64,000 nucleotides of DNA, from assembly GCA_041697335.1 (NCBI GenBank), contig JBGUGD010000015.1, positions 128,001 through 192,000 of the forward strand, given 5' to 3'. Below are positions 21,060 through 29,499 of this stretch, one piece after another. Under the pieces are notes generated by a model that was given only the letters and a program-made list of their open reading frames with translations, did not search any database and was not told the origin of the DNA. The first letter of the stretch is position 1, and every line of letters begins with the position of its first letter. This stretch comes from Vampirovibrionaceae bacterium NZW_1234. GTDB lineage: Bacteria; Cyanobacteriota; Vampirovibrionia; Vampirovibrionales; JAGQHJ01. The position numbers and the translations under genes were made by a program.

Positions 21060-22778
21060 ATGATCAAAACCTCCCTGACCCTCCTGCACACTCGACCACC
21101 CCTTACAGCACGCCCAACCCGACCTATGCCTAACCCTGGCCCATTGTTTCAAACTGGGGATCAGGTCTGCTTCGGGGCAGCACGAAAAAAGAGCAACACA
21201 AGCCCCAGTGTCTTCCGAAGCGAAGGGGTTTTAACACCGGACATGATTGCCGAGAAGCAATTGGCCTTCATCCAGCCGGTCACGGCCTCGGATATCCAGG
21301 CCCTGATGGAGGTCGCTTCTCCTGACCCGAAAAACCAGGCCCTCGTGGGACAGGTTTTGGACAGAATGACGCAGTTTGGGAATGAAGCCAGCCTCAACGG
21401 CTTGGTAACCCGGCTGAACAAATGGCTGGAGGCCCCGCTCTTTGTGGATCAGCAAAGCGCCCTGGGCGACTCGCTGTACTATTTGGCTAAGCGTAAAGGG
21501 ACCTTTCAGGATGTGGCTCCCGGGTTTGCGAGAAACATCGAAGACATTCAATCCCACGGAGGCCTGGAGGGGCTGCCCCAATGGGGCGAGACGGAAGGGG
21601 CTTTGCTCCTGGACGACTTGACCCTGACACGCCTTGAGGCAAACCCGGAACTGGTGCGTCATATTGCCAATCATGACTTTACCCTGTTTTATCCGGAAAG
21701 CTGGCTGGATGGGATTACGCTTTTTACGCCGCGTCAACAGATGCTGCCGCGTTTGAAGGCCATGATGGCCAAGGTCCAAGCCCTTCAGGCTGACGGCTTG
21801 CCTCAGGATAAGGCCATTCAAAAGGCCTTGGATAGCACCCTTCAGGAACGCCTTAAAAACATTGCCCTTTCGGCGGGTCTTGCCCCAGAGGCACTTCTGG
21901 AAAAGCTGACCATACTGGAGCACCCCGATAGAAAAGGCAATCCCGCAATAGACCCCGAAGCCTTGGCCCGGCGCCTGGCTCCCAAATACTTGACCAATCA
22001 AACATTGAAAGCCATTATGACCCATACCCACAGCGATGATCGCCCGCCACTGATGGAATTTTTAGACAGGGTCTATCGCCATTACCCGGCGCGAAATCTG
22101 GCTGAAAAATGTCAGGAGCAGCATCAACACATCCGAGAACTGGCCCAGAAGCTTTCGATTTCGCCTGACAAAATCTACTTTTATTTTCCTACCGGCACCC
22201 AAGCCGACGGACTTTTGGATTTTTCCTACAAAAGCAATGGCATGGCCACCATGGTCTACCGGCAAGTCAATCAAATCCCCGCAAAAAACGTCCTGAACCG
22301 AATTCCAGACGAACTGGCACGGGACCCAAGCGCCATGGTGGTTCTGGTCGATGATTTTTCGGGCACGGGTATCCAGATGCTTCAAAGCATGCGCCATTAT
22401 TTTCTCCAAAACGTCAAAGGCCCGGTGGTGTTTGCCCCATTAATTCACTCGGCTGCGGCTCGACGCAATTTTGAGCAAACACAGAAGGGCTATCCCAATC
22501 ACCATTGGGTTTCCACGGAGCAGATTCCAAACTTACAGGAAACGGACTTTTTTAAAACCCTGTCCGAGGCAGACAAGATTCGCCTGTATCAAGCGCTGGG
22601 CAAAGAGCCAGACCCGACAACCGGACAATACAGTCCGGAAGATTTAATCTGCGTCTCCCTATGGAACATGTCCCCGGACAATAACCCGCAGTGCCGGGCT
22701 ATTGATCGGATCCTGAGAGAAGGCGGGCTGCTCAACGAAAAAGGGCATACTAATGCCACAAGCGCCTTCTACGTCTAG
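21060..22778 (+). CDS. Hypothetical protein with C-terminal phosphoribosyltransferase-like domain
   Basis: VVLVDDFSGTG PRPP-loop motif and later PDNN; low-complexity N-terminus ending DQVCFG. Confidence 0.6.
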   Translation: MIKTSLTLLHTRPPLTARPTRPMPNPGPLFQTGDQVCFGAARKKSNTSPSVFRSEGVLTPDMIAEKQLAFIQPVTASDIQALMEVASPDPKNQALVGQVLDRMTQFGNEASLNGLVTRLNKWLEAPLFVDQQSALGDSLYYLAKRKGTFQDVAPGFARNIEDIQSHGGLEGLPQWGETEGALLLDDLTLTRLEANPELVRHIANHDFTLFYPESWLDGITLFTPRQQMLPRLKAMMAKVQALQADGLPQDKAIQKALDSTLQERLKNIALSAGLAPEALLEKLTILEHPDRKGNPAIDPEALARRLAPKYLTNQTLKAIMTHTHSDDRPPLMEFLDRVYRHYPARNLAEKCQEQHQHIRELAQKLSISPDKIYFYFPTGTQADGLLDFSYKSNGMATMVYRQVNQIPAKNVLNRIPDELARDPSAMVVLVDDFSGTGIQMLQSMRHYFLQNVKGPVVFAPLIHSAAARRNFEQTQKGYPNHHWVSTEQIPNLQETDFFKTLSEADKIRLYQALGKEPDPTTGQYSPEDLICVSLWNMSPDNNPQCRAIDRILREGGLLNEKGHTNATSAFYV

Positions 22779-22814
22779 CCCCTACAGCAAAAGAACAATA
22801 GGCTGAAAAACCGG

Positions 22815-23294
22815 TTACGAAGCAGCACAGGCTTGACACAAGCCCACAAACTCCAGGCGATGATCCTCCACCTGAAACCGGGCCTGCTGGGAGACCTGGG
22901 CGAGGATGGCATCCATGCCGTGGCAATGGACTTCTTGGGTCGTGTTGCACTGACGGCAAATCAATAAATGATGACAATGATCGTCTTGAGGTAACTGGCA
23001 GTGATCCTCGTCATCCAGCTGACACTTGCGGACCTTGCCGGTGAGAAGTACCCGGTGGATGAGATGGTTCTCTTCCAGACATTCCAGAATCCGGTAAATG
23101 CTCACAATATCGACCGCTTCATCGGAGGCGGCCAGCAAATCACGGATCTCATAAGCCGATAACGCGGTATTGGCGTCATTTAAAAGCTGCACCACCAACT
23201 TACGAGGCTTGGTGATCCGATAACCTCGCTTCTTGAGAGCAGAAAGCGCATTTTCAGTATAACTGGACATGGGCACATGTTCCGGGTGGGCCAT
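22815..23294 (-). CDS. Fur-family metalloregulator (probably Zur)
   Basis: GYRITKPRKLVV, LSAYEI, SIYRILECL, HCHHLLICRQC and FVGLCQAC; start 23294 or 23270. Confidence 0.9.
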   Translation of the reverse strand: MAHPEHVPMSSYTENALSALKKRGYRITKPRKLVVQLLNDANTALSAYEIRDLLAASDEAVDIVSIYRILECLEENHLIHRVLLTGKVRKCQLDDEDHCQLPQDDHCHHLLICRQCNTTQEVHCHGMDAILAQVSQQARFQVEDHRLEFVGLCQACAAS

Positions 23295-23324
23295 GGTTTT
23301 ATTTTTCAACAGGCGTAACGATTT

Positions 23325-23404
23325 TGCAATCATGCCCCCTTTCACTATTGCAATCATGTTGTATTTATATTGCAATGTAATTGCATTAATGTTGATTGCA
23401 ATCA
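23325..23404. promoter_or_regulatory. Cluster of TGCAAT inverted repeats, candidate Fur/Zur operators
   Basis: TGCAAT-N3-ATTGCA at 23371-23385, TGCAAT-N3-GTTGTA at 23349-23363, TGATTGCAATCA at 23393-23404, half-site at 23325. Confidence 0.65.
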
Positions 23405-23418
23405 GGGTGTCCCACACG

Positions 23419-23766
23419 ATGAGTTTTTCAAATACCACACCAACGGCTGCTGTACTGCCCAAGCGTCTGAACCCGGTTTCTCCGGCCCTGCAACGCTTAA
23501 GCCTGCCGTGGTCTATTCCCAGCGGCGAACTTCGCCTGCATCATCTTAAAACCGCCATCCTCAATCTGCTGATGTTCCCGGTACTGCCCCTGGTTGGCTA
23601 CTTTGGCCTGGATGCCACGGGTGTGACCCAATGGATCATCCATGACAACGACGTGCTGCGCCAGATTTTGGGCGAAGGCTTTGGCCATGCGGGCCTGTGC
23701 TTTGCCCTCCATTACCTGTTGACCAGCGCCAAACATTTCTGGAAAGCCCTCTTTCCTGCCGTGTAG
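23419..23766 (+). CDS. Small two-TM membrane protein with conserved-looking His/Glu residues
   Basis: Two hydrophobic segments (ILNLLMFPVLPLVGYFGL; GEGFGHAGLCFALHYLL); first gene after the operator cluster. Confidence 0.6.
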   Translation: MSFSNTTPTAAVLPKRLNPVSPALQRLSLPWSIPSGELRLHHLKTAILNLLMFPVLPLVGYFGLDATGVTQWIIHDNDVLRQILGEGFGHAGLCFALHYLLTSAKHFWKALFPAV

Positions 23767-23809
23767 CTTTGATTTGTACTTTTTAAAACCCTTCTGGTAA
23801 TTCGGTGTG

Positions 23810-24766
23810 ATGTACGCTCCCTCAGTGGCCTATAGCAATGCCCCCATTCTGTATCCCAGAATGGCCTCCTGGCCGCAGCAACAGTACTGGTATGGTCCCG
23901 GTTACGCCCAGCCGCACCAGCATCTGCATGCGCATCCGGCGCCCCGTTGGGAAGCGGCCTTGGCGCCGACCCCACACCCAAAGCCCGCCGCCAGACAGGA
24001 GCCGGATCCCTCCGTCTTTCTCCGGGAACTGCTGGCCACTTTGCCTCAGACGCCCTCGCACAAGCCAGAGAATTCTGATGCCCATGGGCACTCCCATGAA
24101 CCAGAGCAGCCTGTGAAAAAGCCCATTACCTGGCAACGGGTGGGTACCAAGCTGGCGGCCGCAGCCGGGTTCTTTTTGGTGGCTCGACTGCTGGGGAAAC
24201 TGCCTTCAACCAACAGTACCTTTAAATATCTGACCTCGGACTGGAAAGAGTGGGCCAAAGTGGCGCTGGGGATTGCCTCCATGAACCAGGTCAATGACCT
24301 CTTCGGCTGGAAGCCTCCGGCGTGGCTGATGGCCATTCAGACCACCCTCTTCGTCAATCCGGCCGTGTCGGGCTTTACCAAAAAAATGGCCCTGCAAACC
24401 CTGGTGATGGCCCCGTTGGTTTCTGCCATCGTGGCCACGACCAACTATCTCAACGACACCATTACCCAGCCGGTCCAGGAGAAACTGCATATTCCTCCCG
24501 CCCTGACCCGACTGGCCGTAATGATCAGTATGATGGCGGTCGGCATTAAAACTTACCCTCACCTTTATCGCAAGGTTGCTGAAACCGGGATGATGGGTCA
24601 GGAAGCCAAAGCACAAGCGTCCAAGCTGGTGGTCGGCACCGAAATCGTCACCTGTGCCAAATGCGGAAGTAACCACCTGATCTGCATGAGCGAAATCGGT
24701 GACTACATCGGCAGCATGGGCAACTGGTTTCGCGGTAAGCATCAAGAAACAAAGAGGACCTCATGA
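23810..24766 (+). CDS. Membrane protein with His patches and a C-terminal CxxC..HxxC motif
   Basis: HQHLHAH, HGHSHE, several TM-like segments, CAKCGSNHLIC; ATGA overlap with the next gene. Confidence 0.75.
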   Translation: MYAPSVAYSNAPILYPRMASWPQQQYWYGPGYAQPHQHLHAHPAPRWEAALAPTPHPKPAARQEPDPSVFLRELLATLPQTPSHKPENSDAHGHSHEPEQPVKKPITWQRVGTKLAAAAGFFLVARLLGKLPSTNSTFKYLTSDWKEWAKVALGIASMNQVNDLFGWKPPAWLMAIQTTLFVNPAVSGFTKKMALQTLVMAPLVSAIVATTNYLNDTITQPVQEKLHIPPALTRLAVMISMMAVGIKTYPHLYRKVAETGMMGQEAKAQASKLVVGTEIVTCAKCGSNHLICMSEIGDYIGSMGNWFRGKHQETKRTS

Positions 24767-25800
24767 ACGCCATTCGCTTTAACCCGGTTTACACGCCTGT
24801 AATGCGGCCCCGCTTCGGGCATCAGCCCACGGATCCAACCCCGGATCCGACAGGGGCGGAAACCCATGACGCCTCAGAAGAGCCTGGCCATGTTCATGGG
24901 CCCGGGTGCAACCACACCCACGGTTTAGGTCTTCCGGGGCTGGGAGGTCCCCAAAAAGGCAAAAAACCCCAGTTTACCTGCACTAAGCCGGGCGAAACGC
25001 CTGGCGGTGACAAGGACAAACAGGCCACCGATACCCCTGGGAAATCCCATACGCATGGCCCGGGACATAAATGCACCGGCGCATGCAAGCACGATCATGG
25101 CCATGAGCACCCCCATACAGAGACTCCGGCCACCCAAGGCCCCCGAACAGACGCCACGAACACAGGGGGTGTGACGGGCGGGGCATCGGGTGCCTCTGCC
25201 GGGAGCGAAAAAACGCCTGTGTCGGGTGCCGGTGTCACTGGTGCTGCCAGCACCACAGATGCGGCATCCCAGAAAGCCACCGGACACAGCCATGATCATG
25301 ACCACGGACACACATGTGGCGCCGGGTGCACTCACGATCATCCCCCGAAGAAAGTCGCTCCCGCTTCCGGGAAGGACAAGAAGGCCACCGCCGCCAAAGA
25401 CGGCGGCCACGTTTGCGGTAGAGGCTGCAATCACGACCATGACCACGCCTCCGTTAAGAAACGCAAACCTTCGGCAGGAAAACCCCAAGGCGGTGATCAT
25501 GTCTGTGGCAGTGGTTGTGATCACGATCACGCCCATGATCACAGCGTCAAAAAAGCCTCTCCAGCATCCAAGAAGCCAAAAGCCACACCAAAAGCGCCTC
25601 CGAAACCCAAAACCCTGCTCGGTTGGATCCCCTATGGTGTCAATCGCGTCTTTACGTGGTTTTATGAATTAGTAACGGGTTTTCTCAAGGACCTGAAGGC
25701 GCTGATATCCGGACAACCGAAAGAAGAGTCACACCAGCACGATCATCATCATCACGACCATGATCACGCCCACGATCACCCGCATCCCCATAAACACTGA
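24763..25800 (+). CDS. His/Cys-rich putative metal-binding protein
   Basis: Repeated H-x-C-G-x-G-C-x-H-D-H-type modules and a poly-His C-terminus; GAGG RBS. Confidence 0.85.
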   Translation: MNAIRFNPVYTPVMRPRFGHQPTDPTPDPTGAETHDASEEPGHVHGPGCNHTHGLGLPGLGGPQKGKKPQFTCTKPGETPGGDKDKQATDTPGKSHTHGPGHKCTGACKHDHGHEHPHTETPATQGPRTDATNTGGVTGGASGASAGSEKTPVSGAGVTGAASTTDAASQKATGHSHDHDHGHTCGAGCTHDHPPKKVAPASGKDKKATAAKDGGHVCGRGCNHDHDHASVKKRKPSAGKPQGGDHVCGSGCDHDHAHDHSVKKASPASKKPKATPKAPPKPKTLLGWIPYGVNRVFTWFYELVTGFLKDLKALISGQPKEESHQHDHHHHDHDHAHDHPHPHKH

Positions 25801-25830
25801 TCCCGAAAGTTCACACAAAGGTTAGCACCT

Positions 25831-27021
25831 GTGACACGATCCCCCTCGCCCTCGTTAATTAGTCCGCAGTTCCTGCTGCTGTGTGTCAGCGTGCTCTTTT
25901 TCTTTGCCAGCTATCACCTGCTCTCGCCGGTGTTGCCCTTCTTTTTCAAAGCCAATCAGTTCCAGGGCCAAGCCATCGGCACCCTGATGTCGGCCTTTAT
26001 GGTGGCCTCCCTGGTGACCCGGCCCTGGATTGGCAAGCTGTGCGATGAGCGAAATAAGAAAATGATTCTCCTGGTGGGCGTCATCGGTTTTATGATCTGC
26101 CCGGTCCTGTATCTGCTGACCCATGACCAGACCCTGTTGTTTGGAATTCGTCTTCTTCATGGCATCAGCTTTTCACTGACTTACACCTCAGCCAGCAGCC
26201 TTCTGGCCGATATCGTTCCGCCCGACAGAAAAGCCGAAGGCATCAGCTATTTCAGCAACGCCATTAAAGTCGCCATGGCCTTCAGCCCGGGGTTGGGGTT
26301 GTGGTTGGCGGAGCGCTACCCGCTGGCCTATCCCTTTGTGCTGTCCGCCATTTTCTCCATGCTGGTCTTAGCCTGTGTCAGCCTGATTCCCAGTGCCTCT
26401 GCGGCCCCCAAAGCCGCCTCAAGCACCTCGGCTCGGGGCAAGCTGTTTAACAGGAAGGCCTTTTTCCCGGGCTTCTTGATGGCCACCAACAGCATTGCCT
26501 TCGGCGCCCTCATCCCCTTTGTGCCTCAGCTGGCCCAGGAAAAACACCTGGCGGATGCCGGTCTGTTCTATACCCTCTATGCCCTCTTTCTGATTTTCTC
26601 CCGGACCCTGACGGGTAAGCTCTCGGACAAATATGGCCGGGATTCGGTTCTCATCCCCGGCATGCTGATGGTGGTGATGACGCTTCTGTTTCTGAGCTGG
26701 TCTCCCAGCCTGGCTGTCTTTCTGATTGCCGCCTGCTTATATGGCCTGAGTGCCGGGACCGTACAGCCATCGTTGATGGCCCTGGCCCTGGACAAAGCCG
26801 ACGCCCACGAGCGAGGCTCCACCATGGCCACCTTTACCATGTTTACGGATTTAGGCATCGCCTGCGGCATGTATGTGATGGGCTCGCTGGGGTCCACCCA
26901 AGGTTACAGCGCCTCGTTGTTGTGGATTGTCTTGACGGCGTTTATGGGCTGGATTTTGCTGATGGTATCCCAGTTTCGCCAGAAACGCCTGACGTCAGAG
27001 AAGGTGACCACCCATGCCTAA
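25831..27021 (+). CDS. MFS transporter
   Basis: About 12 TM segments; GKLCDERNKK and GKLSDKYGRD loop motifs; RLLHG. Confidence 0.93.
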   Translation: MTRSPSPSLISPQFLLLCVSVLFFFASYHLLSPVLPFFFKANQFQGQAIGTLMSAFMVASLVTRPWIGKLCDERNKKMILLVGVIGFMICPVLYLLTHDQTLLFGIRLLHGISFSLTYTSASSLLADIVPPDRKAEGISYFSNAIKVAMAFSPGLGLWLAERYPLAYPFVLSAIFSMLVLACVSLIPSASAAPKAASSTSARGKLFNRKAFFPGFLMATNSIAFGALIPFVPQLAQEKHLADAGLFYTLYALFLIFSRTLTGKLSDKYGRDSVLIPGMLMVVMTLLFLSWSPSLAVFLIAACLYGLSAGTVQPSLMALALDKADAHERGSTMATFTMFTDLGIACGMYVMGSLGSTQGYSASLLWIVLTAFMGWILLMVSQFRQKRLTSEKVTTHA

Positions 27022-28063
27022 TCTGTCGCCTTTGGTCCATAGCTTCCTGGAGCGTCAACTGAGTGTGGTGGAAGATTACCATTGCCTTCGCCCGGAAAAG
27101 CCGACGGCCGATCCCCACGCCCTGGCTGTGGCCGTCTATCAGAAAATGACCAATTACCGGTTCTGCCGCCGTCGTCCCCACGATGCCGCCGGGATGATTG
27201 GCACCATTGAAGCGGCAATTCGGGCACAAGAGCCTGTTTCCTGCATTCTTGGCCATGGCCCTCTGAAAAATCGAAATAATTGCCCTTACCCCACGGCAGA
27301 CTGGGCCGAGTGCCTTGCCTATGTTCAACTGATGCGCCTGGCGTCAGCGGTCAAAGCCCTCTATGAGCCGGGTCTGAGCATTACCCTGTACGTGGACGAT
27401 GCCCGCTCACAGTTTGCCAATGCCGTGGATGCCGCCGTTACCCAGCCCTATTTTGACAGCCTGGGCCAACTGGTCCAGACGCTGGGCTTTGATGCGGTGA
27501 TTACCGATATCGTGTCCTTACAAGAGCTATACCCGGCGTTTCAACACGAGTCGTTTTTGCCTCAAGCCACAGCCAAGGTGGCTCAGTGGCGCCAGGATCC
27601 CCTGAATCAGGAGGCCTTGTTTGAGCTTTATGCCCATGCCCATCGAAACCTGGTCTTCCCGGATACCCTTAGCGCTGACGAGCAACACCGCCTGGTGGAT
27701 GAGGCCACGATGCGCTACCAGGTCTGTCACGAAGCCGAAAAGCTTTCGGGCATCTGGAGCCAGCCCAATCGGGTGTATATGCGCTACAGCCCCCATGAAG
27801 GGTTTTATCAGATCTTTACCCTGCGCAAGGGCTCGGTATCTCAACCCTGGCAAGGCCAGGGCGCCCTGCTTCTGACCCCCCAGGGCAAGCTGGATCCCTA
27901 TATCATCACAACCCAGAAGCGCCAGAAGACCGTGCTGGTGGATACCTTTACGACCACCTTCGACCTTCCGGGCCTCAATACGTTACCGGTCTTCCGGGAA
28001 TTGGAAACCCCGACGGAGACTTCCACCCTTTCCGAAACCCAGGCAATGTTTATCTCTCGCTAG
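27014..28063 (+). CDS. Distant isocyanide (isonitrile) synthase-like protein, Dit1/PvcA family
   Basis: ADWAECLAYVQL..LASAVKALYEPGLSITLYVDD, YMRYSPH and QPWQ follow, in order, the PvcA-type PDxAExLAL..L...YxPGAxIxIxSDG, RLSIH and TPWH motifs (recognised by eye). Confidence 0.6.
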   Translation: MPNLSPLVHSFLERQLSVVEDYHCLRPEKPTADPHALAVAVYQKMTNYRFCRRRPHDAAGMIGTIEAAIRAQEPVSCILGHGPLKNRNNCPYPTADWAECLAYVQLMRLASAVKALYEPGLSITLYVDDARSQFANAVDAAVTQPYFDSLGQLVQTLGFDAVITDIVSLQELYPAFQHESFLPQATAKVAQWRQDPLNQEALFELYAHAHRNLVFPDTLSADEQHRLVDEATMRYQVCHEAEKLSGIWSQPNRVYMRYSPHEGFYQIFTLRKGSVSQPWQGQGALLLTPQGKLDPYIITTQKRQKTVLVDTFTTTFDLPGLNTLPVFRELETPTETSTLSETQAMFISR

Positions 28064-28064
28064 G

Positions 28065-28622
28065 CTATTGCCAAAGCTTTCGATGGGCTTGTCGGGCCTC
28101 TCGCTCCAGCTTGTAGAAGCGGGCTTCGTAACGTCGGTTTTGGCCAATAAACAAGACTTTTGCCAACCCTGCCTGAATCAGTGAGGCATTGGCCATGGTC
28201 TGGCCCTTGGGATCCAGATAGACATAGGCCAAGACCCGGTTGTACTTGTCCCGAGGCTTCACATCGGACTCCAAATAGGCCGGGCGATGCAGCAGATTCG
28301 CCTCTACCCATTGTTTGGCTTCCTTGGCAAAGGGCTCGTCACGGCCGCTGGTGTTTTTGCGAGAGTAATGCATTTCGGTGGCATCAATGCCCAGCATCCG
28401 CACATGTTCCTGAGGGGATTCAATGCGCCCGTTACGATTGAGATCGCAGCCAAAGGTATCCCCGTCAAACACCACTTTTACCTGGCATGAGGTTAAGGGT
28501 GCTGTGGGCATCCGAGACAAGGCCGCTTTTTCCTGAGGCGATTCCACCTGAAAACCCAGCACAGAAAGCATGCTAGAGATAAACAGCAGGACCGCAATCA
28601 AGCCCAGAAAATAGCGTGCCAT
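28065..28622 (-). CDS. Thermonuclease (SNase) family protein with N-terminal membrane anchor
   Basis: VFDGDTF, VRMLGIDATE, DKYNRVLAYVY and LIQAGLA motifs. Confidence 0.92.
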   Translation of the reverse strand: MARYFLGLIAVLLFISSMLSVLGFQVESPQEKAALSRMPTAPLTSCQVKVVFDGDTFGCDLNRNGRIESPQEHVRMLGIDATEMHYSRKNTSGRDEPFAKEAKQWVEANLLHRPAYLESDVKPRDKYNRVLAYVYLDPKGQTMANASLIQAGLAKVLFIGQNRRYEARFYKLEREARQAHRKLWQ

Positions 28623-28623
28623 C

Positions 28624-29499
28624 TTAGGTGTAGTCAAAGAAACCCTTGCCGGACTTTTTGCCCAGATATCCGGCGTTGACTTTTTGCACCAGCAACGGAC
28701 ATGGGCGATACTTGGGGTCTTTAAAGCCTTCATAAAGCACATTCAGGATAGCCAGGCAGGTATCCAAGCCGATGAAGTCGGCCAGCTGCAAGGGGCCCAT
28801 CGGATGGTTCATCCCCAGCTTCATCACCGTGTCAATGTCTTCGGCCGAACCCACGCCTTCAAACAAGGCAAAGATGGCTTCGTTGATCATGGGCATCAGG
28901 ATCCGGTTGGAAATAAAGCCCGGATAATCATGACTTAAGACCGTCACTTTCTGAAGCTTTTTGCCCAGCTCATCAACGGTCTGATAGGTGGCATCGGAGG
29001 TTTGAGCGCCTCGGATGATTTCCACCAGCTTCATCAACGGAACCGGGTTCATAAAATGCATCCCGATGACTTGCTCCGGGCGCTGGGTCACGGCGGCAAG
29101 GCGGGTGATAGAGATGCTGGAGGTGTTGGAGGCCAGAATGGCTTCCGGCTTCAGAAGCTGATCCAACTGCCGAAACATCGTTTGCTTCAGGGCTTCGTCT
29201 TCAATGATGGCTTCCACGACGATGTCTGCATCTTTGAGGGCATCAAACCCGGACGCAAAGGTCAAGCGCCCCAGAGCTTCGGTTCGTTCCGCCTCGGTCA
29301 AGATGTCCTTCGTCACGAACTTTGCCAAACTGCCTTCAATGCCGTTCCGGGCCCTGTCCAACTGGGCTTCGGCCACATCATGCAAGACCACTTGATATTG
29401 CCCATAATGGGCCATAACCTGGGCAATTCCGCTACCCATCTGGCCCGCACCAATGACGCCTACGGTCTTGATCTTCTGGGGTATCAGCATTTGAACCAT
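28624..29499 (-). CDS. hbd: 3-hydroxybutyryl-CoA dehydrogenase
   Basis: [29 protein letters not shown] and [17 protein letters not shown] motifs. Confidence 0.93.

Follow-up and report, generated by a model that had tools for sequence, protein, structure and literature searches.

A predicted zinc-responsive gene cluster of Vampirovibrionaceae bacterium NZW_1234 joins candidate metal-capture genes to a transporter and a divergent PvcA/IsnA-fold enzyme

Here we describe a gene cluster (positions 22815-28063) in a 64,000-nucleotide stretch of the genome of Vampirovibrionaceae bacterium NZW_1234 (hereafter the window), in which a Fur-family regulator gene diverges from orfA, orfB, orfC, a transporter gene of the major facilitator superfamily (MFS) and a gene for an enzyme of PvcA/IsnA fold. 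Comparison with relatives suggests that the cluster is likely a mosaic of module 1 (regulator, operator and orfA-orfB-orfC) and module 2 (MFS transporter and enzyme). We hold it to be an even call whether it works as a zinc-starvation operon of these two modules, in which zinc-capture/import genes repressed by a zinc-type regulator (Zur) would be followed by a transporter-enzyme pair read through from the same promoter. It appears to have arisen when an order-wide, undescribed metal module was joined to a patchily distributed transporter-enzyme pair. The features of the cluster are (window coordinates and strand):

22815..23294, minus: predicted Fur-family regulator of Zur type, starting at 23294 or 23270; two CxxC motifs; His/Cys/His/Glu at the E. 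coli Zur site B positions
23322..23404, no strand: predicted array of operator sites in the divergent spacer; the two highest scores are 22.1 bits (23368-23388) and 18.5 bits (23346-23366)
23419..23766, plus: orfA, 115 aa; small hydrophobic protein; invariant GEGFGHxGxC..H motif; no Pfam match
23810..24766, plus: orfB, 318 aa; likely a membrane protein, all-helical, with a His-containing N-terminus that varies; candidate metal permease
24653..24685, plus: Cys cluster of orfB (C282, C285, H289, C292)
24763..25800, plus: orfC, 345 aa, with 43 His, 10 Cys and an N-terminal RFG motif
25831..27021, plus: MFS_1 transporter, 396 aa
27014..28063, plus: PvcA/IsnA-fold enzyme, 349 aa; divergent clade; motifs GPxKN, DD, RYSPH and QPWQG
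28065..28742, minus: thermonuclease-like gene, convergent; right boundary of the cluster and outside the system

Regulator, operator and predicted zinc regulon

All six reading frames of the cluster are present, and the layout described in the initial annotation was recovered: a Fur-family gene (Pfam FUR, 65.7 bits, ending at 22815) diverges from five co-oriented genes, whose spacings are exactly a gap of 43 nt, an overlap of 4, a gap of 30 and an overlap of 8 (using ATG starts at 23419 for orfA and 23810 for orfB). A longer, TTG-start frame of the regulator reaches 23462 and crosses the spacer. GC content is even across the cluster (0.55-0.57), and an Rfam scan of 22700-28300 returned no match at E 0.5. 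Pfam names the regulator (FUR), the MFS transporter and the last gene (DIT1_PvcA), and places orfA, orfB and orfC in no family above cut-off. These three hold 6 His and 1 Cys (orfA), 13 and 3 (orfB), and 43 and 10 (orfC). On the left, the regulator gene is met by a convergent 572-aa gene (21060-22778), whose PRTase-CE match is weak (24.8 bits, under cut-off).

The regulator is likely of Zur type, in line with the Fur/Zur label of the initial annotation, though it is not filed under the NCBIfam Zur model: its site-B ligands align with those of E. coli Zur, and its predicted operator is shared with COG0523 promoters of relatives. Both CxxC motifs (the Cys4 structural site) are retained, and H72, C83, H98 and E113 (numbered from ATG 23270) align with His77, Cys88, His96 and Glu111, the site-B ligands of E. 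coli Zur, of which Cys88 is the most conserved among Zur proteins (excerpts of PMC4219657). The His and Cys of site B are kept in 15 of the 17 proteins of the regulator's clade, and the Cys is not present in the main Fur; this genome encodes three Fur-family proteins. All NCBIfam equivalogs score the regulator under their cut-offs. In comparison with described Zur proteins (E. coli Zur, PDB 4MTD; M. tuberculosis FurB, 2O03), it has the Fur fold, the two CxxC motifs, the His/Cys/His/Glu site, a divergent and predictedly autoregulated layout and, in relatives, COG0523 genes in the predicted regulon; it differs in its operator and in a predicted regulon without znuABC, besides scoring below the NCBIfam Zur cut-off.

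The divergent spacer (124 nt, 37% GC) was rightly called operator-rich: it holds four copies of TTGCAAY, as against 0.19 per kb window-wide. The operator consensus reads TGCAAY-N3-RTTGCA, with half sites at 23322 and 23393, and presumably resembles the Burkholderiales Zur box, a likeness that we assume. A matrix built from the sites of five relatives placed the window spacer and one other site at the top of the genome (24.4 bits; next 17.5). With a matrix built from 14 orfB promoters the two best spacer sites scored 22.1 and 18.5 bits, values reached by none and by 5 of 3000 dinucleotide shuffles, respectively; the matrix that scored the spacer was trained solely on sites of relatives. The spacer is likely the operator of the regulator.

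The extent of the predicted regulon points to zinc. In the 400 bases before the gene, 16 of 28 COG0523 genes, from seven genera, reached at least 15 bits with the orfB-trained matrix (background: 1 of 2631 ORFs of this genome), and one further COG0523 gene is preceded by the second box described below. A subset of COG0523 genes is under Zur control, according to excerpts of PMC2770081. The same matrix stayed below 12 bits before all 30 feoB genes examined, out of 49 found. Further genes behind the box are that of the regulator, orfA and, in several genomes, a small ORF followed by an RRM gene; in several relatives it lies on or just past the -10 region with TTGAC spacing (read by eye). A second Fur-family clade, divergent from orfB in other genomes, has a box of its own, TGAAAAT-N-ATTTTCA (box II, the former being box I), whose metal is less certain. 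Operator statistics and the COG0523 promoter test therefore argue for the earlier claim that the His/Cys-rich genes are under metal control, here as part of a predicted zinc-limitation regulon. Zinc-loaded Zur would very probably bind the spacer and repress both itself and orfA-orfB-orfC, a repression lifted by zinc shortage.

The second strong Zur-type box of this genome (L056:7332-8090) has a small unannotated ORF and an RRM protein downstream. The same succession of box, small ORF and RRM gene occurs in four relatives (L131, L137, L139, L160), often with the regulator gene behind.

orfA, orfB and orfC as a candidate zinc-acquisition module

Known importers are sparse in this order. ZnuA was found in 6 of its 49 genomes and not seen in the other 43; the six ZnuA-family genes (L163-L168), without either Zur-like box directly upstream, may bind manganese or sit inside operons. 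In the present genome (3.70 Mb, 94.75% complete), searches for ZnuA, ZIP and Nramp, for COG0523 at E 1e-20 and for a TonB receptor (which would take up a metal-chelator complex) found none, which extends to the whole assembly the initial remark that the cluster itself is free of ZnuABC, COG0523 and TonB-receptor genes. In view of these negatives, orfB-orfC becomes a candidate for a new zinc importer, and module 1 may do the job of the missing one. The unusual capture proteins, a side remark of the initial annotation, have become the stronger part of the result. A literature search, with subscription papers mostly and supplements wholly outside it, surfaced nothing on zinc uptake in Vampirovibrionales or on the enzyme clade treated below.

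Profile matches to orfB occur in 40 of the 49 genomes of the order and in none of 213 sampled genomes from other families of the class (a single-sequence search gave 3 proteins, and the extent of the family emerged from genome profile searches). The three-Cys cluster is kept in all 27 aligned members. The structure model is all-helical (pLDDT 83) and found common helical matches in fold searches (Z at most 7.6, over 54 residues; lowest Foldseek E 0.77), with residues past 85 barely covered; the best ESM Atlas value (0.79) is within chance level. A scan of the 27 members gave only a weak Asp-Al_Ex match in Pfam (E 0.025, one member) and no match to ZnuB, ZIP, Nramp, NiCoT or DUF318-type permease profiles. 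A complex prediction for orfB with the orfC helix scored 0.18 against a mark of 0.32 and weighs neither way. In one family an insert of 500-650 residues, often His-rich, lies between the orfB helices and the Cys tail, bringing the protein to 785-903 aa (L079, L080, L081, L085, L086, L088) and the insert to as many as about 50 His.

At most orfB loci the next gene is small and encodes an RFG-type leader, a middle rich in metal ligands and a conserved amphipathic helix, and the orfC of the window is a long member of this family, with low-complexity HxHxH/CxHxH repeats and the conserved C-terminal amphipathic helix at 25594-25719. It is translationally coupled to orfB here and in most relatives, and is His-rich (7-24 His) at all 14 Zur-box loci examined. 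The 77 homologues of orfA are all free of Pfam domains, and the GEGFGH..C motif is invariant; in relatives, orfA adjoins a Fur-family gene. Among the 35 orfB loci with flanking sequence, box I precedes orfB at 16, box II at 11 and neither at 8 (24 of the 27 boxes were training sites and 3 were held out); a Fur-family gene is present at 14 and orfA at 7. In another genome of the same family (L128:5185-6245), the regulator gene and orfA diverge across the same box as in the window, and orfB-orfC lies elsewhere. Judged against this arrangement, the window appears to join three pieces.

In the mechanism that we propose, orfC, held at the membrane by its conserved helix, would collect Zn2+ on its His/Cys repeats and hand it to the Cys cluster of orfB, with orfA adding a further His/Cys site, and the trio would replace ZnuABC/ZIP; our confidence in this step is evenly balanced. 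Compared with ZnuABC, ZIP/ZupT and COG0523 proteins, module 1 has in common predicted control by zinc limitation, a His-rich capture region and a membrane partner with Cys/His ligands. It differs in that its three proteins belong to no Pfam family, orfB matches no solved fold at a convincing score, the distribution is confined to one order, and paralogues stand under a CsoR-like site.

These paralogues, found behind a G/C-tract palindrome, have Cys-Cys versions of orfC (L039, L044, L047, L048, L049); in two genomes (L345, L352) this site lies ahead of a gene for a predicted exported protein. The palindrome is rare, with no control match in five genomes; we take it to be akin to CsoR/RcnR operators, going by a consensus that we presume, and it could be a hairpin. 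Under Zur boxes, Cys-Cys pairs occur in 1 of 14 orfC proteins. The composition of the orfB-orfC family would thus track the likely metal of its regulator, which supports a metal role; transport may run in either direction.

Two further side observations concern leaders and membrane proteins. The RFG-ending, low-complexity leader (e.g. 24811-24819 in the window) is about five-fold enriched in the first 40 residues of the genome's ORFs, 183 of 3075 of which carry RFG in residues 5-70, and looks like a targeting or secretion signal of the order, apparently undescribed. Separately, an unannotated membrane family of about 465 aa lies behind iron-type boxes (L058:5675-7066; L331, L335, L337), with three boxes in this genome, upstream of a ferritin-like gene; look-alikes in two relatives (L151, L155) lie behind Zur-type boxes, and the family is a second candidate metal transporter. 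Kinship of orfB with its member at L058 was rejected (E 0.048, negative score).

The MFS transporter and the PvcA/IsnA-fold enzyme

Sequence and predicted structure place the enzyme in the PvcA/IsnA superfamily and not among the canonical synthases. Its PF05141 match (31.5 bits, gathering cut-off 26.4) covers positions 1-126 of the 273 of the profile. The structure model (pLDDT 93.4) matched PvcA and PIsnA in Foldseek at E 2e-11 to 1e-9 (best 2.2e-11) and aligned with PvcA over 277 residues (Z 21.6, rmsd 3.5; next match Z 9.9). A cyclodipeptide synthase (CDPS) or tRNA-synthetase derivative was rejected as a candidate, those folds reaching at most Z 9.9 as against 21.6. The initial annotation had called the last gene isocyanide-synthase-like and had named an unrelated fold as grounds for abandoning the idea; the fold found is that of PvcA/IsnA. 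Aligned with nine canonical sequences (hhalign 98.7%), the enzyme retains 10 of 17 invariant residues, among them Lys85, Asp96, Glu99, Asp128, Arg257, Ser259, Pro278 and Trp279. The canonical set of FPxKS, DG, RLSxH and TPWH motifs is not found (Phe to Gly82, Gly to Asp129 and His to Gln280, with four residues in poorly aligned stretches): FPxKS, DG and TPWH give way to GPxKN, DD and QPWQ. A FastTree phylogeny of 145 sequences, restricted to full-length matches of at least 270 aa, groups the enzyme with 131 sequences, itself included, in a clade separate from the canonical enzymes (support 1.0).

Characterised synthases turn the amino groups of aromatic amino acids into isonitriles, and some fungal ones are copper-responsive (excerpts of PMC5974471). 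Excerpts of PMC10153163 describe tailoring enzymes in every characterised isonitrile cluster. In relation to PvcA/IsnA/PIsnA (PF05141; 3E59, 9DH4, 9DHM), the present enzyme is alike in fold, in a score above the Pfam gathering cut-off, in its invariant residues and in an MFS neighbour, as in many fungal clusters. It differs in an identity of 16-17%, in the three replaced signature motifs, in its separate clade, where the searches found no characterised member, and in having no PvcB/IsnB dioxygenase or other tailoring gene, unlike all the characterised clusters of that source. No TauD/PvcB-type partner stands beside the enzyme here or in five relatives, and TauD was not found in the genome. We consider it likely that the enzyme is active with related chemistry, and lean towards a condensation of an amino acid with a sugar phosphate as in PvcA/IsnA. 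That the product is an isonitrile has a somewhat less than even chance, and that it is a metal ligand is slightly less probable again; an isonitrile chelator is possible and not favoured.

The enzyme has 21 close homologues, and its profile reaches 947 representatives at E <=0.001, canonical ones included; among 401 genomes of the class, strong matches occur in 5 others. Some members of the divergent clade carry a fused domain, either NAD-dependent epimerase or radical SAM (P0034, P0035, P0039, P0064), a clue to chemistry. In one distant subfamily, 80 of whose 285 loci were surveyed, the recurring neighbours are a TrmB-type regulator (6 loci) and an EamA transporter (5). Within the class, canonical-type PvcA homologues also occur without an adjacent PvcB (L063:1198-2502, L064:1240-2508, L075, L076), the one in L063 having a long leader with an RFG motif. 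A metagenome scan with the close enzyme alignment returned 137 stretches, none confirmed, and viral scans with two enzyme subfamilies likewise had none confirmed.

MFS orthologues were found in 22 of the 49 genomes of the order, mostly alone and without the enzyme. This genome has a third box, TGAGAAT-N-ATTCTCA, close to a ferritin-like gene. Of the 22 MFS loci found, 18 were examined, and at 10 of them this box precedes the MFS gene with at least 20 bits; 2 of the 4 MFS-enzyme loci are among these 10 (background: 7 of 2631 at 15 bits). A matrix from the 10 MFS sites recovered 17 of 30 feoB promoters, against a background of 13 of 2618 that includes the feoB of this genome, and we read the box as that of an iron Fur. 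The MFS box in G164 was first taken for a second Zur-type box (22.1 bits), a reading dropped since it scores higher as iron-type (25.3) with a matrix that finds feoB; the site is ambiguous. Because the MFS box also precedes feoB, the MFS-enzyme pair would be iron-linked in some relatives, and would have been placed behind a zinc operator here. In the window cluster the iron-type box is not found (best 6.3 bits), nor is there a terminator-like site between orfC and the MFS gene; given the 30-nt gap and the 8-nt overlap, the pair has probably lost its own iron box and is co-transcribed behind orfC. It likely makes and moves a small metabolite derived from an amino acid.

Competing readings and implications

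The initial annotation took the five genes for one metallophore system. If so, the enzyme would make an isonitrile chelator, the MFS transporter would export it, and orfA, orfB and orfC would recover the metal complex. The tight packing behind a Zur operator and the PvcA fold speak for this, as do the MFS gene, a type present in about 60% of fungal isocyanide clusters (excerpts of PMC10153163), and its weak likeness to CntE (88.8 bits; cut-off 235, other MFS models scoring higher). Likeness to the Cnt (staphylopine/pseudopaline) operons extends to a metal-regulated operon with a small-molecule enzyme and an exporter-like gene; the window differs from them in having no nicotianamine-synthase-like or opine dehydrogenase gene, no ABC importer and no TonB receptor, in an MFS protein far below the CntE cut-off, and in genes that are not co-conserved. 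Conservation speaks against a single system, the two modules not having been found together outside this genome: neither MFS nor enzyme occurs at any of the 35 orfB loci, no module-1 gene occurs within 9-20 kb at any of the five enzyme loci of relatives, and 38 of the 40 orfB-bearing genomes lack the enzyme. In four of the five relatives the MFS gene is directly upstream of the enzyme; at the fifth locus (L009:9453-11749), where no box was found, the enzyme comes after a carbonic anhydrase piece and an alpha/beta hydrolase. One family has the enzyme in 4 of its 5 genomes without orfB, which would fit the two replacing each other; this anti-correlation (by genus, Fisher p 0.006) is not relied on because kin are not independent and two genomes carry both. 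Together with the iron-type MFS box shared with feoB, the altered motifs, the missing TauD and TonB receptor and the 80 surveyed loci of the distant subfamily (no Fur, ZnuA or COG0523 gene in 624 kb), this leaves a coherent five-gene zincophore system unsupported, and we deem it unlikely. Such a system is possible in this genome, but not as a conserved unit. Zur-type control, the His/Cys-rich regulon genes and the synthase fold are what endures of the original proposal, while its coherent unit does not.

A different partition would make the MFS-enzyme pair a passenger, either under a weak promoter of its own or with a part in iron or stress responses, and would give the enzyme a chemistry other than isonitrile formation. 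We find this doubtful, if less so than the single system: the replaced motifs, the well-supported separate clade, distant members that stand alone or fused to other domains, and an MFS gene mostly found without the enzyme fit it, and set against it are the 8-nt overlap and the adjacency in relatives, the missing terminator-like site and iron box, and the retained Lys, Asp, Glu, Asp, Arg-x-Ser and Pro-Trp. Rather unlikely, in our estimate, is that orfB-orfC is a membrane-anchored metal buffer or efflux aid, with orfC as a sink (of which Helicobacter Hpn is a His-rich example) that takes up zinc where Zur is in control and copper, nickel or cobalt where a CsoR/RcnR-type repressor is. The Cys-Cys-rich paralogues and the few strongly hydrophobic helices of orfB favour such a role; the literature adds that CsoR/RcnR proteins control efflux (PMC11672702) and that Zur is able to induce an exporter too (PMC5472717). 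The position of the box at or just past the -10 region, a geometry of repression, its occurrence before COG0523 genes and the failure to find a known zinc importer in the genome oppose it. Least probable of all, orfC would be exported by its RFG signal, perhaps into prey, as a protein zincophore with orfB as its receptor or chaperone. An RFG-type motif after a low-complexity leader in most orfC members and its enrichment in the genome's ORFs would agree with that, and the order's type species is predatory and has a type IV secretion system (excerpts of PMC4451040); no paper on the RFG motif surfaced in the literature search, and the conserved amphipathic helix suggests membrane attachment instead.

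The two-module zinc-starvation operon has observations of its own to answer. The five-gene arrangement was seen in this genome only, boxes of every type are missing from 2 of the 4 other MFS-enzyme loci (both of one genus), and at 94.75% completeness a known importer could be unassembled. The regulator's top PDB match is labelled Fur (9ire, E 3.4e-13), narrowly above Zur 4mtd (4.3e-12), and at 65.8 bits it does not reach the 167-bit cut-off of the NCBIfam Zur equivalog NF008646. Of the 28 COG0523 genes, 11 have neither box and 9 of the 16 positives come from a single genus, and the box stands directly upstream of none of the six ZnuA-family genes of the order. The averaged hydropathy of orfB is moderate (four peaks, 1.2-1.5). 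Finally, 8 of the 35 orfB loci have no Zur box, and 5 of these 8 have the G/C-tract palindrome in common, with a CsoR/RcnR gene at one (L044); orfC at such loci has 0-5 His and Cys-Cys pairs in 7 of 7, which hints at metal excess and not shortage.

The enzyme opens a wide divergent branch of the isonitrile-synthase fold whose chemistry is apparently undescribed, and the three operator matrices (two Zur-like, one iron-Fur-like) map predicted metal regulons for a lineage in which the literature search found none. The His-rich and Cys-Cys versions of orfC offer a natural test of metal selectivity. In the boldest form of the two-module reading, which we find as doubtful as the passenger idea, orfB-orfC (with orfA) would be a new class of metal transporter found in Vampirovibrionales only; it would take the place of ZnuABC/ZIP across most of the order and have diverged into a His-rich version for zinc (Zur) and a Cys-Cys version (CsoR). 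In this genome it would also have recruited a founding member of a large, uncharacterised clade of PvcA fold, which would make a new small molecule that binds metal, with no tailoring enzyme involved. Of all the leads, orfB-orfC as a possible new zinc importer is the most valuable: with ZnuA undetected in 43 of the 49 genomes of the order, most of which have orfB under a zinc-type operator, it may represent the zinc-acquisition route of these bacteria, possibly through a new transporter fold.

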